Assembly (NCBI GenBank): GCA_007376185.1
Contig: VMFS01000003.1
Location: forward strand, 25,983 to 89,982
Direction of reading: 5' to 3'
From: Parcubacteria group bacterium Gr01-1014_30
GTDB taxonomy: Bacteria > Patescibacteriota > Minisyncoccia > Minisyncoccales > 2-12-FULL-40-12
DNA: 64,000 bases
The notes beneath the pieces were generated by a model that did not search any database, was not told the origin of the DNA, and saw nothing but the letters and a program-made list of their open reading frames with translations. Made by a program: the position numbers and the translations under genes. Of the stretch, positions 12,591 through 60,643 are shown one piece after another. The number at the start of each line of letters is the position of its first letter. The first letter of the stretch is position 1.

Positions 12591-12778
12591 GCTCGGCGGT
12601 AAAGTTCCCGTTCGCCGTCCCTCAAAAATCGATCGTCAGCGAAGATGAAGAAGAGATTTATCTCTTCTGACTCCCAGCGAGATTTTGGGGTCTGCGCTCT
12701 CGCGCCGCCATTCCGCCCTCAAGCGGAAACCTTGCTGGCGGCGCTCCGAGAGCCGTCCGGAAACTTCACCGCCTCGCT
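12591..12778. mobile_element. MITE-like GC-rich element with ~20-nt imperfect terminal inverted repeats
   Basis: Ends are gctcggcggtaaagttcccg and ccggaaacttcaccgcctcgc (about 16/20 complementary). Central hairpin agaagaga-ttta-tctcttct. Fills the 12580-12784 intergenic gap. Confidence 0.55.
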
Positions 12779-12784
12779 TAAAAT

Positions 12785-13546
12785 ATGCCTAAAGTATCCA
12801 TCATAGTTAGAACAAAGAACGAAGAAAAGTGGATAGGCGAGTGTTTGAGAGCGGTTTTCGGCCAGAAGTTTAAGGGGTTCGCTGAAACTTCGTCTCCTTT
12901 CACTCCCGCAGGGGCGAGAAGAGAACGAAGTTCTCTGCGAGCGCCTCTCTCTGTTTCACAGAGTTCGGCTTTTGAAGTTGTTGTTGTTGATAACGGGAGC
13001 TTTGACAAAACGTTGGATATCGCGAAAAAATTTCCGGTGAAAATCGTTCATCACAAAGGTAAAGCTTGGTTTCCCGGAAGGTCAATTAACGCCGGAATCA
13101 GAAATTCGTCCGGAAAGTACATTGCTTTGCTTTCGGGACACTGCGTTCCTGTAAACAATAGTTGGCTTAGCGATTTAGTGAGGGAAGTAAAAGCTCCAAA
13201 AATTGCTGGAGTCTACGGCAGGCAACTCCCTTTGCCAGAAAGTTCACCCTTGGACAAGCAGGATTTATTGATGTTTTTCGGCAAAGACCCATTAATTCAA
13301 ACAAAAGGACACTTCTTTTATTTTGACAACGCAAATTGCGTTATCAAAAGGTCGGTTTGGGAGAAAATTCCCTTTGACGCAAAAATTAGGCACAAAGAAA
13401 ACATTATTTGGGGCAGAAAAGTTGTTCAAAGAGGATACAAAATTGTTTACACTCCCAAAGCAAAAGTTTATCACTGGCACGGAATAAATCACGCAGGAAA
13501 TATAAAAAGAGCCAAAGAAGTGGTTAAAGTGCTGGAAAAATTATGA
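12785..13546 (+). CDS. Family 2 glycosyltransferase carrying an in-frame palindromic insert
   Basis: VSIIVRTKNEEKWIGECLRAVFGQ...EVVVVDNGSFDKT is a GT2 N-terminus. A 30-aa foreign segment interrupts it. Confidence 0.75.
   Translation: MPKVSIIVRTKNEEKWIGECLRAVFGQKFKGFAETSSPFTPAGARRERSSLRAPLSVSQSSAFEVVVVDNGSFDKTLDIAKKFPVKIVHHKGKAWFPGRSINAGIRNSSGKYIALLSGHCVPVNNSWLSDLVREVKAPKIAGVYGRQLPLPESSPLDKQDLLMFFGKDPLIQTKGHFFYFDNANCVIKRSVWEKIPFDAKIRHKENIIWGRKVVQRGYKIVYTPKAKVYHWHGINHAGNIKRAKEVVKVLEKL
12881..12970 (+). repeat. In-frame GC-rich palindromic module (90 nt, 30 codons)
   Basis: Encodes AETSSPFTPAGARRERSSLRAPLSVSQSSA between KFKGF and EVVVVDNGS. Arms gaaacttcgtctc / gagaacgaagttctc. Hairpin ctctg-tttca-cagag. 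Confidence 0.7.
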
Positions 13547-50461: not shown

Positions 50462-50471
50462 AAAATACTTG

Positions 50472-50779
50472 ACCCCGCCCTTGAAAAGCTCCTCTTCTTT
50501 CTGTATGCACTACGTCTATGTTTTGAGAATGAACAACAAAAGAGCATATATTGGTTTCACCACTGACCTTAGAAAAAGAGTTCAAGAACATAAAACAGGC
50601 AAAGTATTTACAACTAGCAAATATCTCCCAGTTCGTCTTGTCTACTACGAATGCTACCTATCTAGGGATGATGCAGAAAGAAGAGAAAGAATGCTCAAAC
50701 GATATGGCAGCACGTGGTCTCATTTGATGCGGAGAATAACAAAAAGTTTCAGAGTATAAGAGCTTTTCAAGGGCGGGGT
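50472..50779. mobile_element. GIY-YIG gene cassette bracketed by a perfect 20-bp inverted repeat
   Basis: accccgcccttgaaaagctc at 50472-50491. Its exact reverse complement gagcttttcaagggcggggt is at 50760-50779. Confidence 0.65.
50505..50759 (+). CDS. Small GIY-YIG nuclease family protein (COG2827/UPF0213-like)
   Basis: MHYVYVLRMNNKRAYIGFTTDLRKRVQEHKTGK...LVYYECYLSRDDAERRERMLK. Confidence 0.75.
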   Translation: MHYVYVLRMNNKRAYIGFTTDLRKRVQEHKTGKVFTTSKYLPVRLVYYECYLSRDDAERRERMLKRYGSTWSHLMRRITKSFRV

Positions 50780-50813: not shown

Positions 50814-50971
50814 GTGAGTGCCCCCGTCCTCTAGGCTGTTTATTATCTTTTTTAGACAATCAGTCACTCAGAAACAAGAATGATTTATGAGGACATTATA
50901 TACGGCATAGAGGGCGGGGAACTTCGCTAAGTCGACGACAGGCTTTCCTCGAGCAAAGCCTGTCGTTTTTT
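50814..50971 (+). ncRNA. Candidate ~160-nt non-coding transcript (promoter to intrinsic terminator, no real ORF)
   Basis: Long-range stem ccccgtcctcta (50822-50833) with tagagggcgggg (50908-50919), with one G-U pair. Ends in terminator cgacaggcttt-cctcgagc-aaagcctgtcg-tttttt (50935-50971). The only ORF is a 16-codon micro-ORF. Confidence 0.35.
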
Positions 50972-53677: not shown

Positions 53678-53738
53678 GGCAACGAACCCCGCCCTCTAAG
53701 CAGCGAAAATATAAAGCATAGAGGGCGGGGTTGTTGCC
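53678..53738. repeat. Long GC-rich hairpin of the CCCCGCCCT family (no T-tract)
   Basis: ggcaacgaaccccgccctcta-[20-nt loop]-tagagggcggggttgttgcc. Confidence 0.7.
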
Positions 53739-55886: not shown

Positions 55887-57125
55887 ATGAAAAAGTATTT
55901 TTTACTTTTGTTGATTTTAGCCATATTTTTGGTTCTTTATTTTTGGCCTTTTCCTGGAGTTCAAAAGCCAGCAGAGCCAGCCTTGGAGACGGAAGTTACG
56001 GACCAAATAACCGTTGATGAAGTTGAAGAACCAGATGAAGGTGAAGAGTCGGAAGGTCTTGAGGTGGTCGCCCGAGAACTGCAAATTCCTTGGGAAATAG
56101 CTTTCCTGCCTGCGCCTGACCGCCTGTCTGCGCAGGCAGGCGCAGGCAGGCAGGAAGGTTTGCCTGATGGCACTTTACTGGCAACCGAAAGGCCGGGAAA
56201 CTTGGCAGTTATTCGTGACGGAAAGGTCGTTAGTCGCATTGCGGTTTCCGGCGTTTACCACAGCGGCGAAGGGGGCTTGCTAGGCATGGCTTTGCATCCA
56301 GATTTCAGGGAGAACAAATTTTTGTATCTCTATTTCACATACAGGGAAGGCAGCCAAACCAAAAACAAAGTGGAGAGATATATTTTTGACGGCGACATTT
56401 TGTCAGACAGAAAAATTATTATTGACAACATTCCGGGAGCTGCAAATCACAACGGCGGCAGAATCGCTTTCGGGCCAGACAGCTACTTATATATAACTAC
56501 TGGAGACGCGCAGGCGCCTAATTTGGCGCAGAACATCAATTCGCTTGCCGGAAAGGTTTTGCGTTTAAGAGACGATGGTTCCATTCCCGAGGACAACCCC
56601 TTTGCTTCGGCCGGCTCAGCACAAGCTGACGCGGTTTGGTCTTTTGGCTATCGCAATCCGCAAGGCCTGGCGTGGGACCAAGCAGGGAGGTTATGGAGCA
56701 CAGAGCACGGCCCTTCTTCTTTGGTGTTGCCGAATTGCTGCCAGGACGAGGTTAATTTGATTGAGAAAGGAGCTAACTACGGCTGGCCAGATAGTGTTGG
56801 AGGTAAAGTAAAAGCAGGAACTATGGCGTCAAAACTGCATTCAGGCGGCGACACTTGGGCGCCATCTGGCGCGGCATACTATAACGGCTCTTTGTTTTTT
56901 GGCGGCCTAAGAGGCCAGAGTTTATATGAGGTGGTTTTACAGGGAGAGGAAGTTGTTGAATTAAAGAGACACTTTAAAGGAGAGTTCGGGCGGATCCGGG
57001 GGGTTTCTCTGGAGCCTGACGGTTTTTTGTACATTATCACTTCCAACAAAGACGGCAGAGGCGTTCCCCAAGCCGACGACGACAAGATAATTCGACTGAA
57101 CCCCAAACTCATCTTTAGTTATTAA
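55887..57125 (+). CDS. PQQ-dependent soluble sugar (glucose/sorbosone) dehydrogenase-like beta-propeller, membrane anchored, with an in-frame insert
   Basis: LGMALHPDF...YLYFTY, NHNGGRIAFGPDSYLYITTGD, GYRNPQGLAWD, GANYGWP. N-terminal TM helix plus an acidic linker. Confidence 0.75.
   Translation: MKKYFLLLLILAIFLVLYFWPFPGVQKPAEPALETEVTDQITVDEVEEPDEGEESEGLEVVARELQIPWEIAFLPAPDRLSAQAGAGRQEGLPDGTLLATERPGNLAVIRDGKVVSRIAVSGVYHSGEGGLLGMALHPDFRENKFLYLYFTYREGSQTKNKVERYIFDGDILSDRKIIIDNIPGAANHNGGRIAFGPDSYLYITTGDAQAPNLAQNINSLAGKVLRLRDDGSIPEDNPFASAGSAQADAVWSFGYRNPQGLAWDQAGRLWSTEHGPSSLVLPNCCQDEVNLIEKGANYGWPDSVGGKVKAGTMASKLHSGGDTWAPSGAAYYNGSLFFGGLRGQSLYEVVLQGEEVVELKRHFKGEFGRIRGVSLEPDGFLYIITSNKDGRGVPQADDDKIIRLNPKLIFSY
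56109..56162 (+). repeat. In-frame GC-rich palindromic module (54 nt, 18 codons)
   Basis: Encodes PAPDRLSAQAGAGRQEGL between IAFL and PDGTLLATER. Arms cctgcctgcgc / gcgcaggcagg. Confidence 0.75.
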
Positions 57126-57196
57126 ACAACCTTAAACAGCACTTTCAACAACTGTACAGTTTTAATTTTGGTCAAATTTGGTAGAATGATAAAATT

Positions 57197-57565
57197 ATGT
57201 CAATTTGGATGGTGACAATCATTTTACTCGCAGCCGCGCTTTCGGGCTGGCTGCTTTTGAAAAGAAACCCTGACCGTTATATTCACGAGAAAACATCGCC
57301 AATGAACATTTTCTTCAAGTGGGGTCACGCTTGGCACCATATTTTTAAGGTCGCGATAATCATTTTGGTTATGATTGTCGTTTTTTCTCTTTACAAGTAT
57401 CTTTTGGCGGCTTCTAGGGTTTTTGCGTTAACAGTAGCGGTCTTGGCCGGAGTTATTCTTTCTGGCGGAAAGGAATTGCTGGATAAATATATTACCTTGG
57501 ACGATGTCATCTCCTCTGCCTTAGCTATAATTGCGGGCTTTTTGTTGCTGTTTTTTCTTTTTTAA
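57197..57565 (+). CDS. Small membrane protein, unknown function
   Basis: Four predicted hydrophobic helices. No motif. Confidence 0.35.
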   Translation: MSIWMVTIILLAAALSGWLLLKRNPDRYIHEKTSPMNIFFKWGHAWHHIFKVAIIILVMIVVFSLYKYLLAASRVFALTVAVLAGVILSGGKELLDKYITLDDVISSALAIIAGFLLLFFLF

Positions 57566-57592
57566 TAGCGTGTTATATAAAAAGTATAGCTT

Positions 57593-58177
57593 ATGGTTTT
57601 AACCGAGTCGGTTCAAAAATTAAAGAAGGGAGACAAGGCGCCGGATTTTTCTTTGAAAGGCGTTGACGACAAAATATACTCTTTGAAGGACTTTGAAGGC
57701 CTGCCTGCCCCCCTGCGCGGTCAGGCGCAGGCAGGCAAACAAGGCCTTTTGGTTATATTTATGTGTAACCACTGCCCTTACGTGAGAGCGAAACTGCCGG
57801 TCATTGCCGAGCTTTACAAAAAGTGGGGTACTAGGATTTCTTTTTGCGGCATCAACAGCAATGACTCTGGATACGAAGGCGAAGGCATGGACAATATGAA
57901 GGTTTTTGCCAAAGAGAGAGCAATTGCTTTTCCTTACTTGTTTGACACACTTCAAGATGTTGCCAAGGCCTATGGAGCAACTTGTACTCCCGACCCGTTT
58001 TTATTCAATAAAAATTCTGAACTGGTTTTCCACGGACGAATTGACGACGCCACGGGCCCGGGCGAGACGGCCAAAGAGAAGACCATGGACGAGAATATCT
58101 CAAAAATGCTTTCAGGCCAAGAAATTTCTGACGAGTTCAAACCGTCAATGGGATGCTCCATTAAGTGGACCCCGTAA
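57593..58177 (+). CDS. Thioredoxin-fold (redoxin-like) protein with an in-frame insert; its stop codon lies inside a repeat
   Basis: KAPDFSLKGVDDKIYSLKDFEG...LLVIFMCNHCPYV (CxxC). The TAA at 58175-58177 lies within ccccgTAAtac of Y-repeat copy 3. Confidence 0.65.
   Translation: MVLTESVQKLKKGDKAPDFSLKGVDDKIYSLKDFEGLPAPLRGQAQAGKQGLLVIFMCNHCPYVRAKLPVIAELYKKWGTRISFCGINSNDSGYEGEGMDNMKVFAKERAIAFPYLFDTLQDVAKAYGATCTPDPFLFNKNSELVFHGRIDDATGPGETAKEKTMDENISKMLSGQEISDEFKPSMGCSIKWTP
57701..57745 (-). repeat. In-frame palindromic module (45 nt, 15 codons), same family as 56109-56162 but in opposite orientation
   Basis: The reverse complement tgcctgcctgcgcctgaccgcgcag matches tcctgcctgcgcctgaccgcctgtctgcgcag of the other copy. 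Encodes LPAPLRGQAQAGKQG. Confidence 0.7.
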
Positions 58178-58248
58178 TACAACTTTCGGTGTGTTCTTGA
58201 AAAGAACACAATTATCGCCGCAGGCGACCGAAAGATGATATACGGGGT
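58169..58248 (+). repeat. Y-shaped structured repeat, copy 3
   Basis: accccgta-atacaa-ctttcgg-[tgtgttctt gaaa agaacaca]-attat-[tcgcc gca ggcga]-ccgaaag-atgata-tacggggt. It exactly fills the gap between two convergent genes. Confidence 0.7.
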
Positions 58249-58251
58249 GGA

Positions 58252-59373
58252 TTACCCGAAAGTAAAAGCGTAAAAACGCGCGCCTCCGCTTTTAATGCGC
58301 AATTCCAAAAAGTGTTCGCCGGTTTTCTCGTTGTTTATTATTTTGTAAAGGCGGCTTTCTTGAATAATCATTTTGCCCTCTAAGTCAACGTCGGCTCCCT
58401 TTGAGCTGTCGGCAAGAGGTTTGCCGTCCTGCCATATTTCGACTTCGACTGGTCCTTGAGCGTCAGCAACTATAAAAACCTCTTTGGCAGAGTAGATATA
58501 ACCGATTTTAGTGTCGCCTGAAAGGGCTTTTGCTGCTTCCGGCGAGATTTCCCACTGGCCTTGAAGGTAGAGAGTGTTTCTAGAGAAGGTTTCCGGAAAC
58601 TCAAGCTGGTAAGTTCCTGCTTTTCCTTTTATGTTTTGCGCTGTTCGCTCGTTGCGTAAAGACCCGAAATAAGTTTCGGGGCTAAGGGCGAAATTTTTTC
58701 CCCTTTCTATTTCCTCTGACGAAAGTGAACTTTCGATGGCGATTTTTTCGCTAACTCTTTCCGCTCTTTCTTGCAGCAGTTTTTGGATTAGCTTTTCAGT
58801 TTCCTCGTAAGCGTCTTCTCCTATGTGGTCGTAGACGATAAAGCCGTCAATGTCTATTAAGTATTTTCTCGGCCAGTAGCGGTTTTGGTAAGCTGACCAG
58901 GTGCCGTAATCATTGTCTAAAACCACGGGATATTTAATGCCCGATCTTATCACAGCTTCAAGGACATTTTCATAGTCCTTTTCAAACGTGAACTCGGGCG
59001 TGTGAATGCCCACTATCAAAAGGCCGTCTTTTGCGTATCTTTCGTACCAGGCGTTCAGATATGGCTGGGTCCGCTGGCAGTTGATGCAGCTGTAGGTCCA
59101 AAAGTCAATAAGAATAACCTTCTTGCCGATGTTTTCAGCAATGGTTATGGACTCGCCTTCGGTATTAATGAAGCCAGCAGGATTCACAATTTCCCGCGCT
59201 CTGGGGTAAATCTTTTCCTTTTGCGTACTGGTCGGAGTTTCCTCACTAATCCTAATTTCGGCTTCTTCGGAAAGACCGGTTCTGCCCCCGGCCCCCAAGA
59301 AATAAATTGCGCTTACAATGATAGCGGTGGCAATGAGCAAAAGAGAAGCTCGCTTTAGCATAGGTTTATTCAT
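58252..59373 (-). CDS. Membrane-anchored thioredoxin-like protein with a DipZ-type C-terminal domain
   Basis: VILIDFWTYSCINCQRTQPYLNAWYERY (CxxC redoxin) plus a ~170-aa C-terminal beta-rich domain, as in the DipZ C-terminus. Confidence 0.65.
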   Translation of the reverse strand: MNKPMLKRASLLLIATAIIVSAIYFLGAGGRTGLSEEAEIRISEETPTSTQKEKIYPRAREIVNPAGFINTEGESITIAENIGKKVILIDFWTYSCINCQRTQPYLNAWYERYAKDGLLIVGIHTPEFTFEKDYENVLEAVIRSGIKYPVVLDNDYGTWSAYQNRYWPRKYLIDIDGFIVYDHIGEDAYEETEKLIQKLLQERAERVSEKIAIESSLSSEEIERGKNFALSPETYFGSLRNERTAQNIKGKAGTYQLEFPETFSRNTLYLQGQWEISPEAAKALSGDTKIGYIYSAKEVFIVADAQGPVEVEIWQDGKPLADSSKGADVDLEGKMIIQESRLYKIINNEKTGEHFLELRIKSGGARFYAFTFG

Positions 59374-60098
59374 TGACCGAGCAGTTTCTCCAGCAGCCCA
59401 AAGTTGGCAAGGACTGCAAGTTTTTGCGTGAAAACAAGCACTCCAAGGATAATAAGGATTACGCCAAAGACAACCGTAATGTACTTGGCCGCCCGATTAA
59501 ACTTAGCAAGGTATTTTTGCACTTGTGCGGTAAAAGCTCCAATTACTAAAAAAGGTACGCCCAAACCGAGAGAGTAGCTCAACAGAAGCCAGAAAGCAGC
59601 GGAGGGTGCAGAGGCCGCCAGCCCCAGTATTGCTCCCAGAGCCGCCCCAACACAAGGAGTCCAGCCCGCCGCGAAAGCGGCTCCGAATAAAAGAGAAGTT
59701 ACATTGCGCCCGAATTGGCCCTTGAGGCGCGATGATAACTTCTCGCTGACACCAAACGTGTGCGCTCTTTCCAAATACGGAATGCTAAAGAGTCGGGTTA
59801 AATACAAGCCGAAAAAAATGATAATAGTGCCCCCGATTCTTGCCAGCCAGATTTGGGCGTCATAAGCTACCCTGGAAAGCAGTGTGTTCAAAAGAACTCC
59901 CAGCGCCGCGAAAACCAACGTGAAGCCGAGCACGAACAACAAGGCGGCGCCAAAGACTCTGCCGCGACTTTTTTCGCCAGTAGTCACGCCGCCTGAAAGA
60001 TAAGCCAAAAAACCCGGAATTATTGGCAGGACGCAAGGCGAGATGAAAGACACAAGGCCTGCAATGAAAGCTATGCCGATTGATATTTGCGTTGCCAT
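59370..60098 (-). CDS. ccdA: Cytochrome c biogenesis-type thiol:disulfide electron transporter CcdA (DsbD core)
   Basis: FIAGLVSFISPCVLPIIPGFLAYL and AAGWTPCVGAALGAIL are the two conserved Cys-containing helices. Six TM helices. Confidence 0.8.
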   Translation of the reverse strand: MATQISIGIAFIAGLVSFISPCVLPIIPGFLAYLSGGVTTGEKSRGRVFGAALLFVLGFTLVFAALGVLLNTLLSRVAYDAQIWLARIGGTIIIFFGLYLTRLFSIPYLERAHTFGVSEKLSSRLKGQFGRNVTSLLFGAAFAAGWTPCVGAALGAILGLAASAPSAAFWLLLSYSLGLGVPFLVIGAFTAQVQKYLAKFNRAAKYITVVFGVILIILGVLVFTQKLAVLANFGLLEKLLGQ

Positions 60099-60100
60099 AA

Positions 60101-60643
60101 CTATTGAGATAGCCGCGTCATCTCTGCAAGGTAACGTTCCTTTTCCCAGGTTTCGAGCGACTTTAACGCTTGTTGACCGTTTTTAATGAACACCTTGGTG
60201 TGCTGATAAGCTATGCCAAACTGTCTGGCCAAAGCCACCTCCTGTTCGTCCGTGTCACTGTCTTGGTAGTTGACTCTAAAACCGATAACAGTGTCTTTTG
60301 GGAATTCGTTGAATGAGGCCTGCATTTTCGGAAATTCAGCTCTGCAAATCGGACACCAGTTGGCGTAAAAGTAAAGCACAACCAGTTTGTCAGAAGCCAA
60401 AGCCGTTTCATAGTCGGCTTGATTGAACTCCAAAAGAAGCGAACTTGAACCTGCCAGAACCTGGCCCTCTTTTTCCGTCATTACGCCGTCGTCTTGGCGC
60501 ATCATTGCATCTTCTTCCATCATTTTTTCTTCGCCTGAACGTTGAGTGAAGTACCATGTTCCTCCCAAAACCGCCAAAATCGCCACAGTTACAAGCAGAA
60601 CTACAACGCCAAACCCGTTTTTAGTTTTTTGCATGGATACCAT
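60101..60643 (-). CDS. Membrane-anchored thioredoxin-like protein (TlpA/ResA-like)
   Basis: N-terminal TM helix. VVLYFYANWCPICRAEFP (WCxxC). Confidence 0.65.
   Translation of the reverse strand: MVSMQKTKNGFGVVVLLVTVAILAVLGGTWYFTQRSGEEKMMEEDAMMRQDDGVMTEKEGQVLAGSSSLLLEFNQADYETALASDKLVVLYFYANWCPICRAEFPKMQASFNEFPKDTVIGFRVNYQDSDTDEQEVALARQFGIAYQHTKVFIKNGQQALKSLETWEKERYLAEMTRLSQ

Follow-up and report, generated by a model that had tools for sequence, protein, structure and literature searches.

In-frame hairpin inserts in two neighboring genes of a Parcubacteria genome belong to a cross-phylum repeat family that shares its termini with GIY-YIG nuclease cassettes

Both palindromic repeats that are tolerated in genes and hairpin repeats that are paired with a small GIY-YIG nuclease are already known. 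Intragenic palindromes include the Rickettsia palindromic elements (RPEs; Ogata et al. 2000), which, as summarized in PMC10969869, measure ~100-150 bp and occur only in Rickettsia and its relatives. They also include the intragenic repetitive extragenic palindromic (REP) sequences of the GTAG/CGTC superfamilies described by Di Nocera et al. (2013), among them Rickettsia RPE-4 and RPE-6; the CGTC class of REPs had no known transposase (PMC3733652). Chenal et al. (2025) identified small single-domain GIY-YIG proteins, termed Ssn, as site-specific nucleases of single-stranded DNA (ssDNA) that cut beside their own hairpin repeats (PMC11893778). Their ssn genes, found widely in Gram-negative phyla, are flanked by SRM hairpins (e.g., the Neisseria NTS) that are present in hundreds of dispersed copies, and the NTS-ssnA-NTS arrangement was likened by its authors to an insertion sequence; the article makes no mention of intragenic copies, RPEs, or the candidate phyla radiation (CPR) (PMC11893778). 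Coding palindromes are furthermore on record in mitochondria, for example in Nematomorpha (PMC6649704). We analyzed here a stretch of 64,000 nucleotides (the window, to which coordinates refer) from Parcubacteria group bacterium Gr01-1014_30 (contig VMFS01000003.1), in which two neighboring genes each carry a short GC-rich hairpin element, referred to as inserts A and B. In-frame palindromic selfish DNA has been known since the RPEs, and we know of no enzyme identified as moving it.

Our preferred reading, which we consider reasonably probable, is that a short non-coding hairpin repeat of the REP/SRM kind, with a long form that encodes a GIY-YIG nuclease, is represented twice here, as inserts A and B. 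The two inserts would persist because they are in frame and stop-free and add a harmless surface loop rich in Pro, Ala, Gly, and Gln. New with respect to the published systems are a stem that lacks a tag and is common to different phyla and to phages, a bias toward lengths that are multiples of three, the occurrence in CPR bacteria, and cassettes that are read in frame in host proteins, often in type I restriction genes.

The 19-mer CCTGCCTGCGCCTGACCGC is present in the window at 56105-56123 on the plus strand and at 57717-57735 on the minus strand, with 0.01 occurrences expected from shuffles. The GC content of the window is 42%, and the two inserts form its sharpest local GC peaks (78% and 80%). 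Insert A (56105-56158, plus strand) is a 54-bp in-frame hairpin element that adds 18 amino acids to a soluble glucose/sorbosone dehydrogenase (GSDH) of the pyrroloquinoline quinone (PQQ) type (55887-57125, plus strand; 412 aa; PF07995, E=2.8e-83). Insert B (57700-57735, minus strand) is a 36-bp in-frame hairpin element that adds 12 amino acids to a thioredoxin-fold protein of the AhpC-TSA/Redoxin type (57593-58177, plus strand; 194 aa). A 36-bp core with 9-bp inverted termini, CCTGCCTGC...GCAGGCAGG, is common to both. Insert A, the sequence of which is APDRLSAQAGAGRQEGLP or an equivalent register, consists of this core (56105-56140) and an additional 18 bp containing a 10-bp tandem duplication, GCGCAGGCAG; it has the bulge-bearing arm CCTGCCTG-CG-CC on the plus strand, and insert B, 1.6 kb away, has the opposite orientation. 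As ssDNA, both inserts form hairpins that are more stable than those of shuffled controls (z = -3.4 to -4.8), and both are stop-free in every frame.

The initial annotation had proposed that one palindromic module, open in both orientations, is inserted in opposite directions in these two genes. The occurrence of the 19-mer once per strand and the homologues with empty sites bear this out, and the frame stays open either way because the inverted termini read alike, giving LPA...QAG peptides as that annotation had stated. Both inserts had been located, but their exact ends are 56105-56158 and 57700-57735 rather than 56109-56162 and 57701-57745. The flanking direct repeats that it had regarded as possible target duplications, TGCCTG (56107-56112 and 56161-56166) and AAGGCCT (57696-57702 and 57741-57747), do exist, but the data do not support target duplications: TGCCTG is the terminus of the element itself, which is similar to the Leu-Pro codons at the target, and the second copy of AAGGCCT lies 5 nt past insert B, in native K-Q-G-L codons that can be compared with those of the thioredoxin-fold homologue P0003. 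Insert B sits between GAA GG and C AAA CAA, with a junction that is ambiguous by 4 nt (AGG|C), and the empty site of P0003 reads GAG GGT AAA CAA GGT. For insert A, the empty site of the closest dehydrogenase homologue is GCT TTT TTG CCA GAC GGC; if the ancestral site was GCT TT|T TTG CCT GAT, the 54-bp insert begins exactly at CCTGCCTG, without any duplication. Since inserts A and B have a private inner sequence in common, are oppositely oriented, and are separated by 1.6 kb, the data suggest that they arose in one local duplication event.

Both proteins accommodate the additional residues in turns. Insert A is located between the strands at residues 68-73 and 97-101 of the dehydrogenase, in the first propeller blade, where the solved structure 2ISM reads PWALAFLP|DGGMLIAERPG and our protein has 18 added residues. 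Insert B immediately precedes residues 51-57, a strand that runs into the CxxC motif (C58, C61), and the alignment with the solved structure 3U5R shows a 12-residue gap at this position. Inserts shared by distant homologues had been named as an observation that would speak against this interpretation; in the homologues examined, the inserts were lacking. Insert A was absent from all 119 other members of a 120-homologue set, and about 115 of 120 thioredoxin-fold homologues had the empty site KDFE-GKQ-GLL. In AlphaFold models of the two hosts, the mean predicted local distance difference test (pLDDT) values were 91 and 89, and the inserts were of low confidence, with values <50 at residues 83-86 of the dehydrogenase (mean of 49 for the block 81-90) and at residues 38-45 of the thioredoxin-fold protein. 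The inserts are thus modeled as disordered loops, each between two well-formed strands.

Other insertions were observed at or near the same sites. Several other dehydrogenase homologues from CPR bacteria with the same AFLP|DG turn (P0130, P0142, P0150, P0208, P0144, P0127, P0162, P0133, and P0151) contain at the equivalent of window positions 56100-56170 differing short inserts rich in Pro, Ala, Ser, and Gly, such as LPASPNASQGGP and LPARSASGTADAGGP; this propeller turn is accordingly a hotspot for independent small insertions. The thioredoxin-fold homologue P0006 has a 33-aa insert exactly at site B (VFAERSSSHDRAKHRARDEQSSATASAEASA), and in the thioredoxin-fold homologue P0098 the CxxC-bearing strand is duplicated in tandem. 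An LPAQAG insert was also noted in a further protein, P0064. P0007 and P0079 contain GLPAEASAKA 9 bp downstream of the site of insert B; in P0007, which is from another CPR organism, this is a 30-bp related copy, the DNA of which matches at 26/30 positions the reverse complement of a common 30-mer, CCTGCCTGCGCCGAGGCTTCGGCAGGCAGG, that is found as an identical unit across unrelated phyla.

To delimit the family, the pattern CCTGCCTGCGC-N(5-35)-GGCAGGCAGG was scanned in one genome per species, which resulted in at least 120 loci; those listed do not include the genome of the window itself. Among them were loci in Latescibacterota (several per chromosome, with hairpin-rich examples such as OZ240239 and OZ241917), Omnitrophota, Verrucomicrobiota, Planctomycetota, Bacteroidota, Desulfobacterota, Methylomirabilota, Acidobacteriota, Chloroflexota, and Spirochaetota, as well as in at least 10 CPR lineages, a few cultured isolates, and long-read complete chromosomes. 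In a viral collection, the pattern was present in 42 contigs, as compared to 1 and 10 for two composition-matched scrambled palindromes. The family architecture consists of CCTGCCTG, a 2-nt CG bulge, CCG, a variable part, CGG, and CAGGCAGG, in which an outer stem of 8-9 bp, CCTGCCTG(C)/(G)CAGGCAGG, encloses a variable inner stem and loop. Conservation extends beyond the search pattern: in the 115 unique copies, position 12 was C in 100, position 13 was G in 90, and position -11 was C in 100, and the base following position -11 was C or T in 98. A flanking duplication was absent in 101 of the 115. The inner stem, which the pattern does not fix, covaries, with 21 compensatory double changes versus 11 +/- 2.3 in shuffles (none of 500 as high) and pairing in 93% of cells as compared to 30-55% with slid partners. 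Of 123 distinct variants, 109 had a length divisible by three (p = 3e-37), a bias that hairpin geometry does not predict. Taken together, these data support the view that the module behaves as a dispersed or mobile repeat.

At low-GC loci, most copies were intergenic, and only 8 were within open reading frames (ORFs) of at least 200 aa, versus 19 expected at random positions. In-frame copies were nevertheless found in other phyla in genes for TsaD, a sulfatase, a Mur ligase (Saccharibacteria), HsdR (WOR-3), an SNF2/PLD helicase (Omnitrophota), FemAB (Spechtbacterales), and DnaG (Bacteroidales). Their phase was mostly LPA...QAG, as in inserts A and B, and the PDB alignment of the TsaD protein is split at a 26-residue insert.

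Several searches for a relationship with described elements gave negative results. Rfam contained no family matching at the hairpin positions, and GTAG did not occur within 8 nt of any of 155 copies, where CGTC/GACG was at background level. An all-against-all clustering of 5305 ORFs near the hairpins, made in search of a recurrent enzyme, returned only ABC-transporter ATPases and related phages, and these candidates were put down to chance or shared ancestry. Group II intron domain V, integron attC sites, CRISPR repeats, the hairpins of diversity-generating retroelements, and sequencing adapters were dropped on the basis of sequence or architecture. Literature searches with the literal sequence and with keywords returned no earlier description of CCTGCCTG hairpins or of in-frame GIY-YIG cassettes.

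Two side observations concern the context of the hairpins. Many matches lie a few bases from contig ends (L009, L018, L024, L062, L074, and others), which suggests that the repeats break short-read assemblies. In AT-rich genomes (L023, L028, L067, and L090, from Bacteroidota and others), the hairpins are often located within 6-8-nt tandem repeats such as aacaagaaacaagaaa and caaatcaacaaa; at L023 these are translated into a Lys/Glu/Gln-rich extension around the hairpin peptide.

The same arms also enclose a nuclease domain. In a WOR-3 metagenome-assembled genome (JAFGIG010000050.1; locus L091), a 291-bp unit, CCTGCCTGCGCCGCG...GIY-YIG...CGCGGCAGGCAGG, is inserted in frame within HsdR and encodes a domain of ~85 aa (PF01541, E=3e-16). 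This hsdR gene contains at least three family members on the reverse strand, namely, a 39-nt hairpin (nt 578-616), the 291-bp cassette after an extra CAGGCAGG half-site (nt 915-1213), and a minimal 18-bp palindrome, CCTGCCTGnnCAGGCAGG (nt 2786-2803). A database search with this unit retrieved 28 proteins, nearly all of the form host-DLPAPRP-GIY-YIG-...RQAG-host or, in another phase, ACLPRR.../...RRRQV. The hosts included HsdS (P0257, P0258, and P0419), HsdR, MsrB, and the C-termini of HsdM. This is illustrated by the complete 538-aa HsdS protein P0419, which reads ...LVAQAPND|LPAPRP...TRQAG|EPASILL... Pfam detected only Methylase_S and GIY-YIG in P0419 and P0291 and only HsdR domains and GIY-YIG in L091, with no Hint/intein domain in any of them. 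The cassette termini were confirmed in the DNA of L275-L277, where one cassette is directly followed by a 39-nt mini-hairpin, and the cassette ORF was found in either orientation relative to the bulged arm: L091 and L276 have the bulge on the left side, L277 on the right. Hairpins and cassettes have 13-15 nt of their termini in common. Together with the cassette data, this match makes the common 33-nt hairpins look like two ends of the long form joined by a few bases, comparable to the relation between a miniature inverted-repeat transposable element (MITE) and its parent element. The CCTGCCTG-armed cassettes (L275-L277, P0247-P0268) were seen mainly in hsdR, hsdM, and hsdS and near DUF1156 or Fic genes; at L275, the host hsdS is apparently frameshifted past the cassette.

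The window contains a GIY-YIG gene of its own, which is missing from public gene calls and was found by a six-frame search. Its neighbors are a Wzy_C/TPR gene and an NYN-domain gene, and insert A follows 5.4 kb downstream. The nuclease gene extends from 50505 to 50759 on the plus strand (84 aa from ATG, in an ORF that starts with TTG at 50469; PF01541, E=1.5e-12). The gene is bracketed by a 27-nt inverted repeat, with a left arm at 50472-50498 (plus strand, ACCCCGCCCTTGAAAAGCTC...) and a right arm at 50753-50779 (minus strand), which are 89% complementary, 254 nt apart, and of a family unlike that of inserts A and B. A further arrangement of this type was observed at L235, where 22-nt arms with 91% complementarity surround a GIY-YIG gene. 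An 11-nt core of the window arms, [A/C]CCCCGCCCT, occurs five times in the window versus 0.5 expected, including both GIY-YIG arms, one mini-hairpin, and one half-site. That intergenic mini-hairpin (53685-53732; z = -8.3), located between rpsI and a gene for a PD-(D/E)XK/Cas4-like nuclease, is a possible miniature relative of the GIY-YIG cassette. Directly downstream of the cassette is a longer hairpin of this second family (50815-50924; z = -5.7) with diverged CCCCG(C/T)CCT arms.

Pfam and NCBIfam yielded only the generic GIY-YIG family for the nuclease, and the best solved structures for the window protein were single-domain UPF0213 proteins. In tblastn searches, the window protein shared 40% identity over 96% of its length with genes of Sinorhizobium and Shinella that have canonical SRM-matching hairpins, CGTCATCCTCGGGCTTGACCCGAGGATCCA, on both sides. 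The L091 nuclease is homologous to both the window and the rhizobial proteins (pairwise E-values of 3e-7 and 2e-11). As judged by these alignments, the long-form nuclease and that of the window are homologous to the Ssn site-specific ssDNA nucleases.

The arrangement agrees with the design of the Ssn systems, in that a small single-domain GIY-YIG gene lies between hairpin-forming inverted repeats of 20-50 nt that also exist as solo copies. The repeats reported here are, however, unrelated in sequence to SRM hairpins and lack an HGTC/CGTC tag, and their arms abut the ORF, so that the entire unit is read in frame as part of the host protein. In addition, the short hairpins are 3n-biased and found in coding sequence, and their copy number is very low in the 73.5 kb of contig read. 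With intragenic REPs they share the size (20-40-bp palindromes), a mostly intergenic location with a minority wholly in ORFs and translated, and the occasional nesting in other palindromes; they differ in being untagged, in having a near-identical stem across many phyla instead of being specific to a species or order, and in their association with GIY-YIG rather than with a REP-associated tyrosine transposase (RAYT). Like RPEs, they are short selfish palindromes without a transposase gene that are located in frame in unrelated housekeeping genes, at sites compatible with the fold, but their size (30-54 bp), cross-phylum distribution, and nuclease-bearing long form set them apart. The resemblance to MITEs lies in terminal inverted repeats common to short non-coding and long coding forms, with the short form being far commoner. 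In contrast to MITEs, no consistent target-site duplication was observed, the encoded protein is an 85-aa GIY-YIG domain and not a DDE transposase, and the element has only a tenth of the length of a typical MITE. Mitochondrial GC clusters are also short GC-rich hairpins that invade AT-rich coding sequence; among them are the byp elements of yeast mitochondria, GC-rich hairpins that are skipped by the ribosome. They are organellar, we know of no nuclease form with the same ends, and inserts A and B, unlike byp, are predicted to be open for translation.

A number of observations weigh against the preferred reading of short hairpins mobilized with the help of a nuclease-bearing long form. The SRM consensus HGTCWYN(0-2)YYVSBRHN(0-5)WNVSBRGN(0-2)RNCYNB matched 0/167 copies and was absent from the window. 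GIY-YIG genes were not recurrent near the ~165 hairpin loci, with 5 matches in all. The inner sequence CCTGACCGC of inserts A and B is nearly private: a metagenome scan with the window 19-mer gave 94 matches, only two of which (L211 and L191) were hairpins, and the other 92 were non-hairpin, high-GC DNA or one conserved gut-bacterial gene. Within the 73.5 kb of contig read there were only 2 copies of CCTGCCTG, as compared to the hundreds typical of Ssn- or REP-rich genomes, and no CCTGCCTG-armed GIY-YIG gene was seen; the 9.5 kb downstream of the window contained neither a hairpin copy nor a GIY-YIG gene. Since the arms of the window's GIY-YIG gene are unrelated to CCTGCCTG, the cognate nuclease of inserts A and B was not found in this 73.5 kb. 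The opposite orientation of the two inserts on the same replichore implies that insertion is not strictly strand-specific. Finally, we know of no experimental demonstration of transposition by an Ssn-type nuclease, the published systems included.

The explanation that competes most seriously, although we judge it doubtful, holds that the hairpins spread by other means and that GIY-YIG genes are secondary invaders of hairpin loops, or are flanked by hairpins as a regulatory or targeting device, and hence passengers or parasites. It would account for the occurrence of the ORF in either orientation relative to the asymmetric arms and for the many hairpin loci without GIY-YIG nearby, and it agrees with the finding that the published Ssn modulates transformation, not transposition (PMC11893778). 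However, several independent host genes contain cassettes whose termini match the hairpin ends exactly, and the arms-nuclease-arms layout recurs in three unrelated arm families, a pairing that would be difficult to account for if enzyme and repeat were not functionally linked. A classical REP/REPIN moved by a RAYT or another HUH tyrosine transposase of the IS200-IS605 type encoded elsewhere in the genome is a less likely source. REP-like features are the size, the palindrome with its bulge, and, in low-GC genomes, a location that is mostly intergenic, and intragenic REPs are on record (PMC3733652), but neither a GTAG nor a CGTC tag was associated with the 155 copies inspected, and the CCTGCCTG arms bracket GIY-YIG genes instead. 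Moreover, the annotated genes between 46 and 64 kb of the window included no transposase, of the HUH type or other, and no HUH transposase recurs near hairpin loci.

Local slippage or template switching at CCTG-like runs, with the two sites homogenized by gene conversion, would be consistent with the 10-bp tandem duplication and the repeated CAGG units of insert A, with the resemblance of its target TTGCCTG to the element end, and with the short distance between the copies; we nevertheless regard such immobile inserts as very unlikely, given that the same termini, bulge, and CCG/CGG continuation are found in >160 copies in unrelated genomes and phages and that complete units occupy clean empty sites. 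Even less probable is that the inserts are selected functional protein loops or that bypass or splicing eliminates them from the RNA or the protein. Each is close to a functional region (A to the first propeller blade, B to the strand before CxxC), and in each case the take-off codon equals the landing codon (CCT...CCT and GGC...GGC), so that bypass would restore the native protein; yet unrelated proteins contain the same DNA, disorder is predicted for the loops, no Hint/intein domain accompanies Methylase_S and GIY-YIG in the cassette-bearing HsdS, and open, in-frame inserts need no bypass. An origin as an assembly artefact, which the initial annotation had also considered, or as a chimera has a negligible probability. 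The source is metagenome-assembled and GC-rich palindromes can confuse assemblers, but an independent assembly of SRR8863434 made with a different assembler (Logan) contains a 5810-bp contig (L178) that is 100% identical across inserts A and B, the frames are preserved, and the family is present in long-read complete chromosomes and cultured isolates.

Under the preferred reading, that of a REP/SRM-like repeat with a GIY-YIG long form, the hairpin would be extruded while the DNA is single-stranded during replication, repair, or uptake, and the cognate GIY-YIG nuclease would nick next to it. The unit might then be copied or pasted at a new site, possibly aided where target and element end are alike over a few bases, and selection would retain within genes only copies that are in frame and located in loops. 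That the nuclease mobilizes the hairpins via ssDNA is what we infer from the architecture and from the published biochemistry of its relatives, and descent would have proceeded from the long to the short form. A more far-reaching proposal, which we put forward tentatively and hold to be possible rather than probable, is that the CCTGCCTG hairpins and cassettes represent an undescribed class of mobile elements suited to life inside coding sequence. Its ~290-bp unit would have neither a start nor a stop of its own and would be read through as an internal domain of the host protein, often a type I restriction subunit; an Ssn-like ssDNA nuclease would recognize the hairpin arms that bound its unit; and the unit would shed miniatures of 30-54 bp, in multiples of three, that spread over phyla and phages into surface loops of essential proteins. 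If true, this would point to the missing class of mobilizing enzymes for RPE-like in-frame palindromes.

The locus links in-frame palindromes to an Ssn-like nuclease and so offers a concrete candidate pair of enzyme and substrate. In metagenome-assembled proteins, loop insertions and "low-complexity" peptides repeatedly stem from short GC-rich hairpin inserts, contigs are probably broken at such hairpins, and small nuclease genes such as that at 50505-50759 escape annotation. The elements may interact with defense systems, as hinted at by the frequent location of cassettes in type I restriction-modification genes.

Two further features of the window were noted. The surroundings of the inserts are a thiol-redox cluster (57593-60643) with three thioredoxin-fold proteins and a DsbD/CcdA-type membrane protein, which adjoins DUF378 and the PQQ-type dehydrogenase. 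In a family 2 glycosyltransferase (GT2)-like ORF (12785-13546), a GC-rich stretch at 12865-12975 encodes GFAETSSPFTPAGARRERSSLRAPLSVSQSSA right before the conserved FEVVVVDNGS and contains imperfect inverted repeats (12910-12926 with 12930-12946); this stretch is possibly a further in-frame palindromic insert that belongs to a different family. A GC-rich inverted repeat was also observed in the intergenic region upstream of this ORF (12696-12753).

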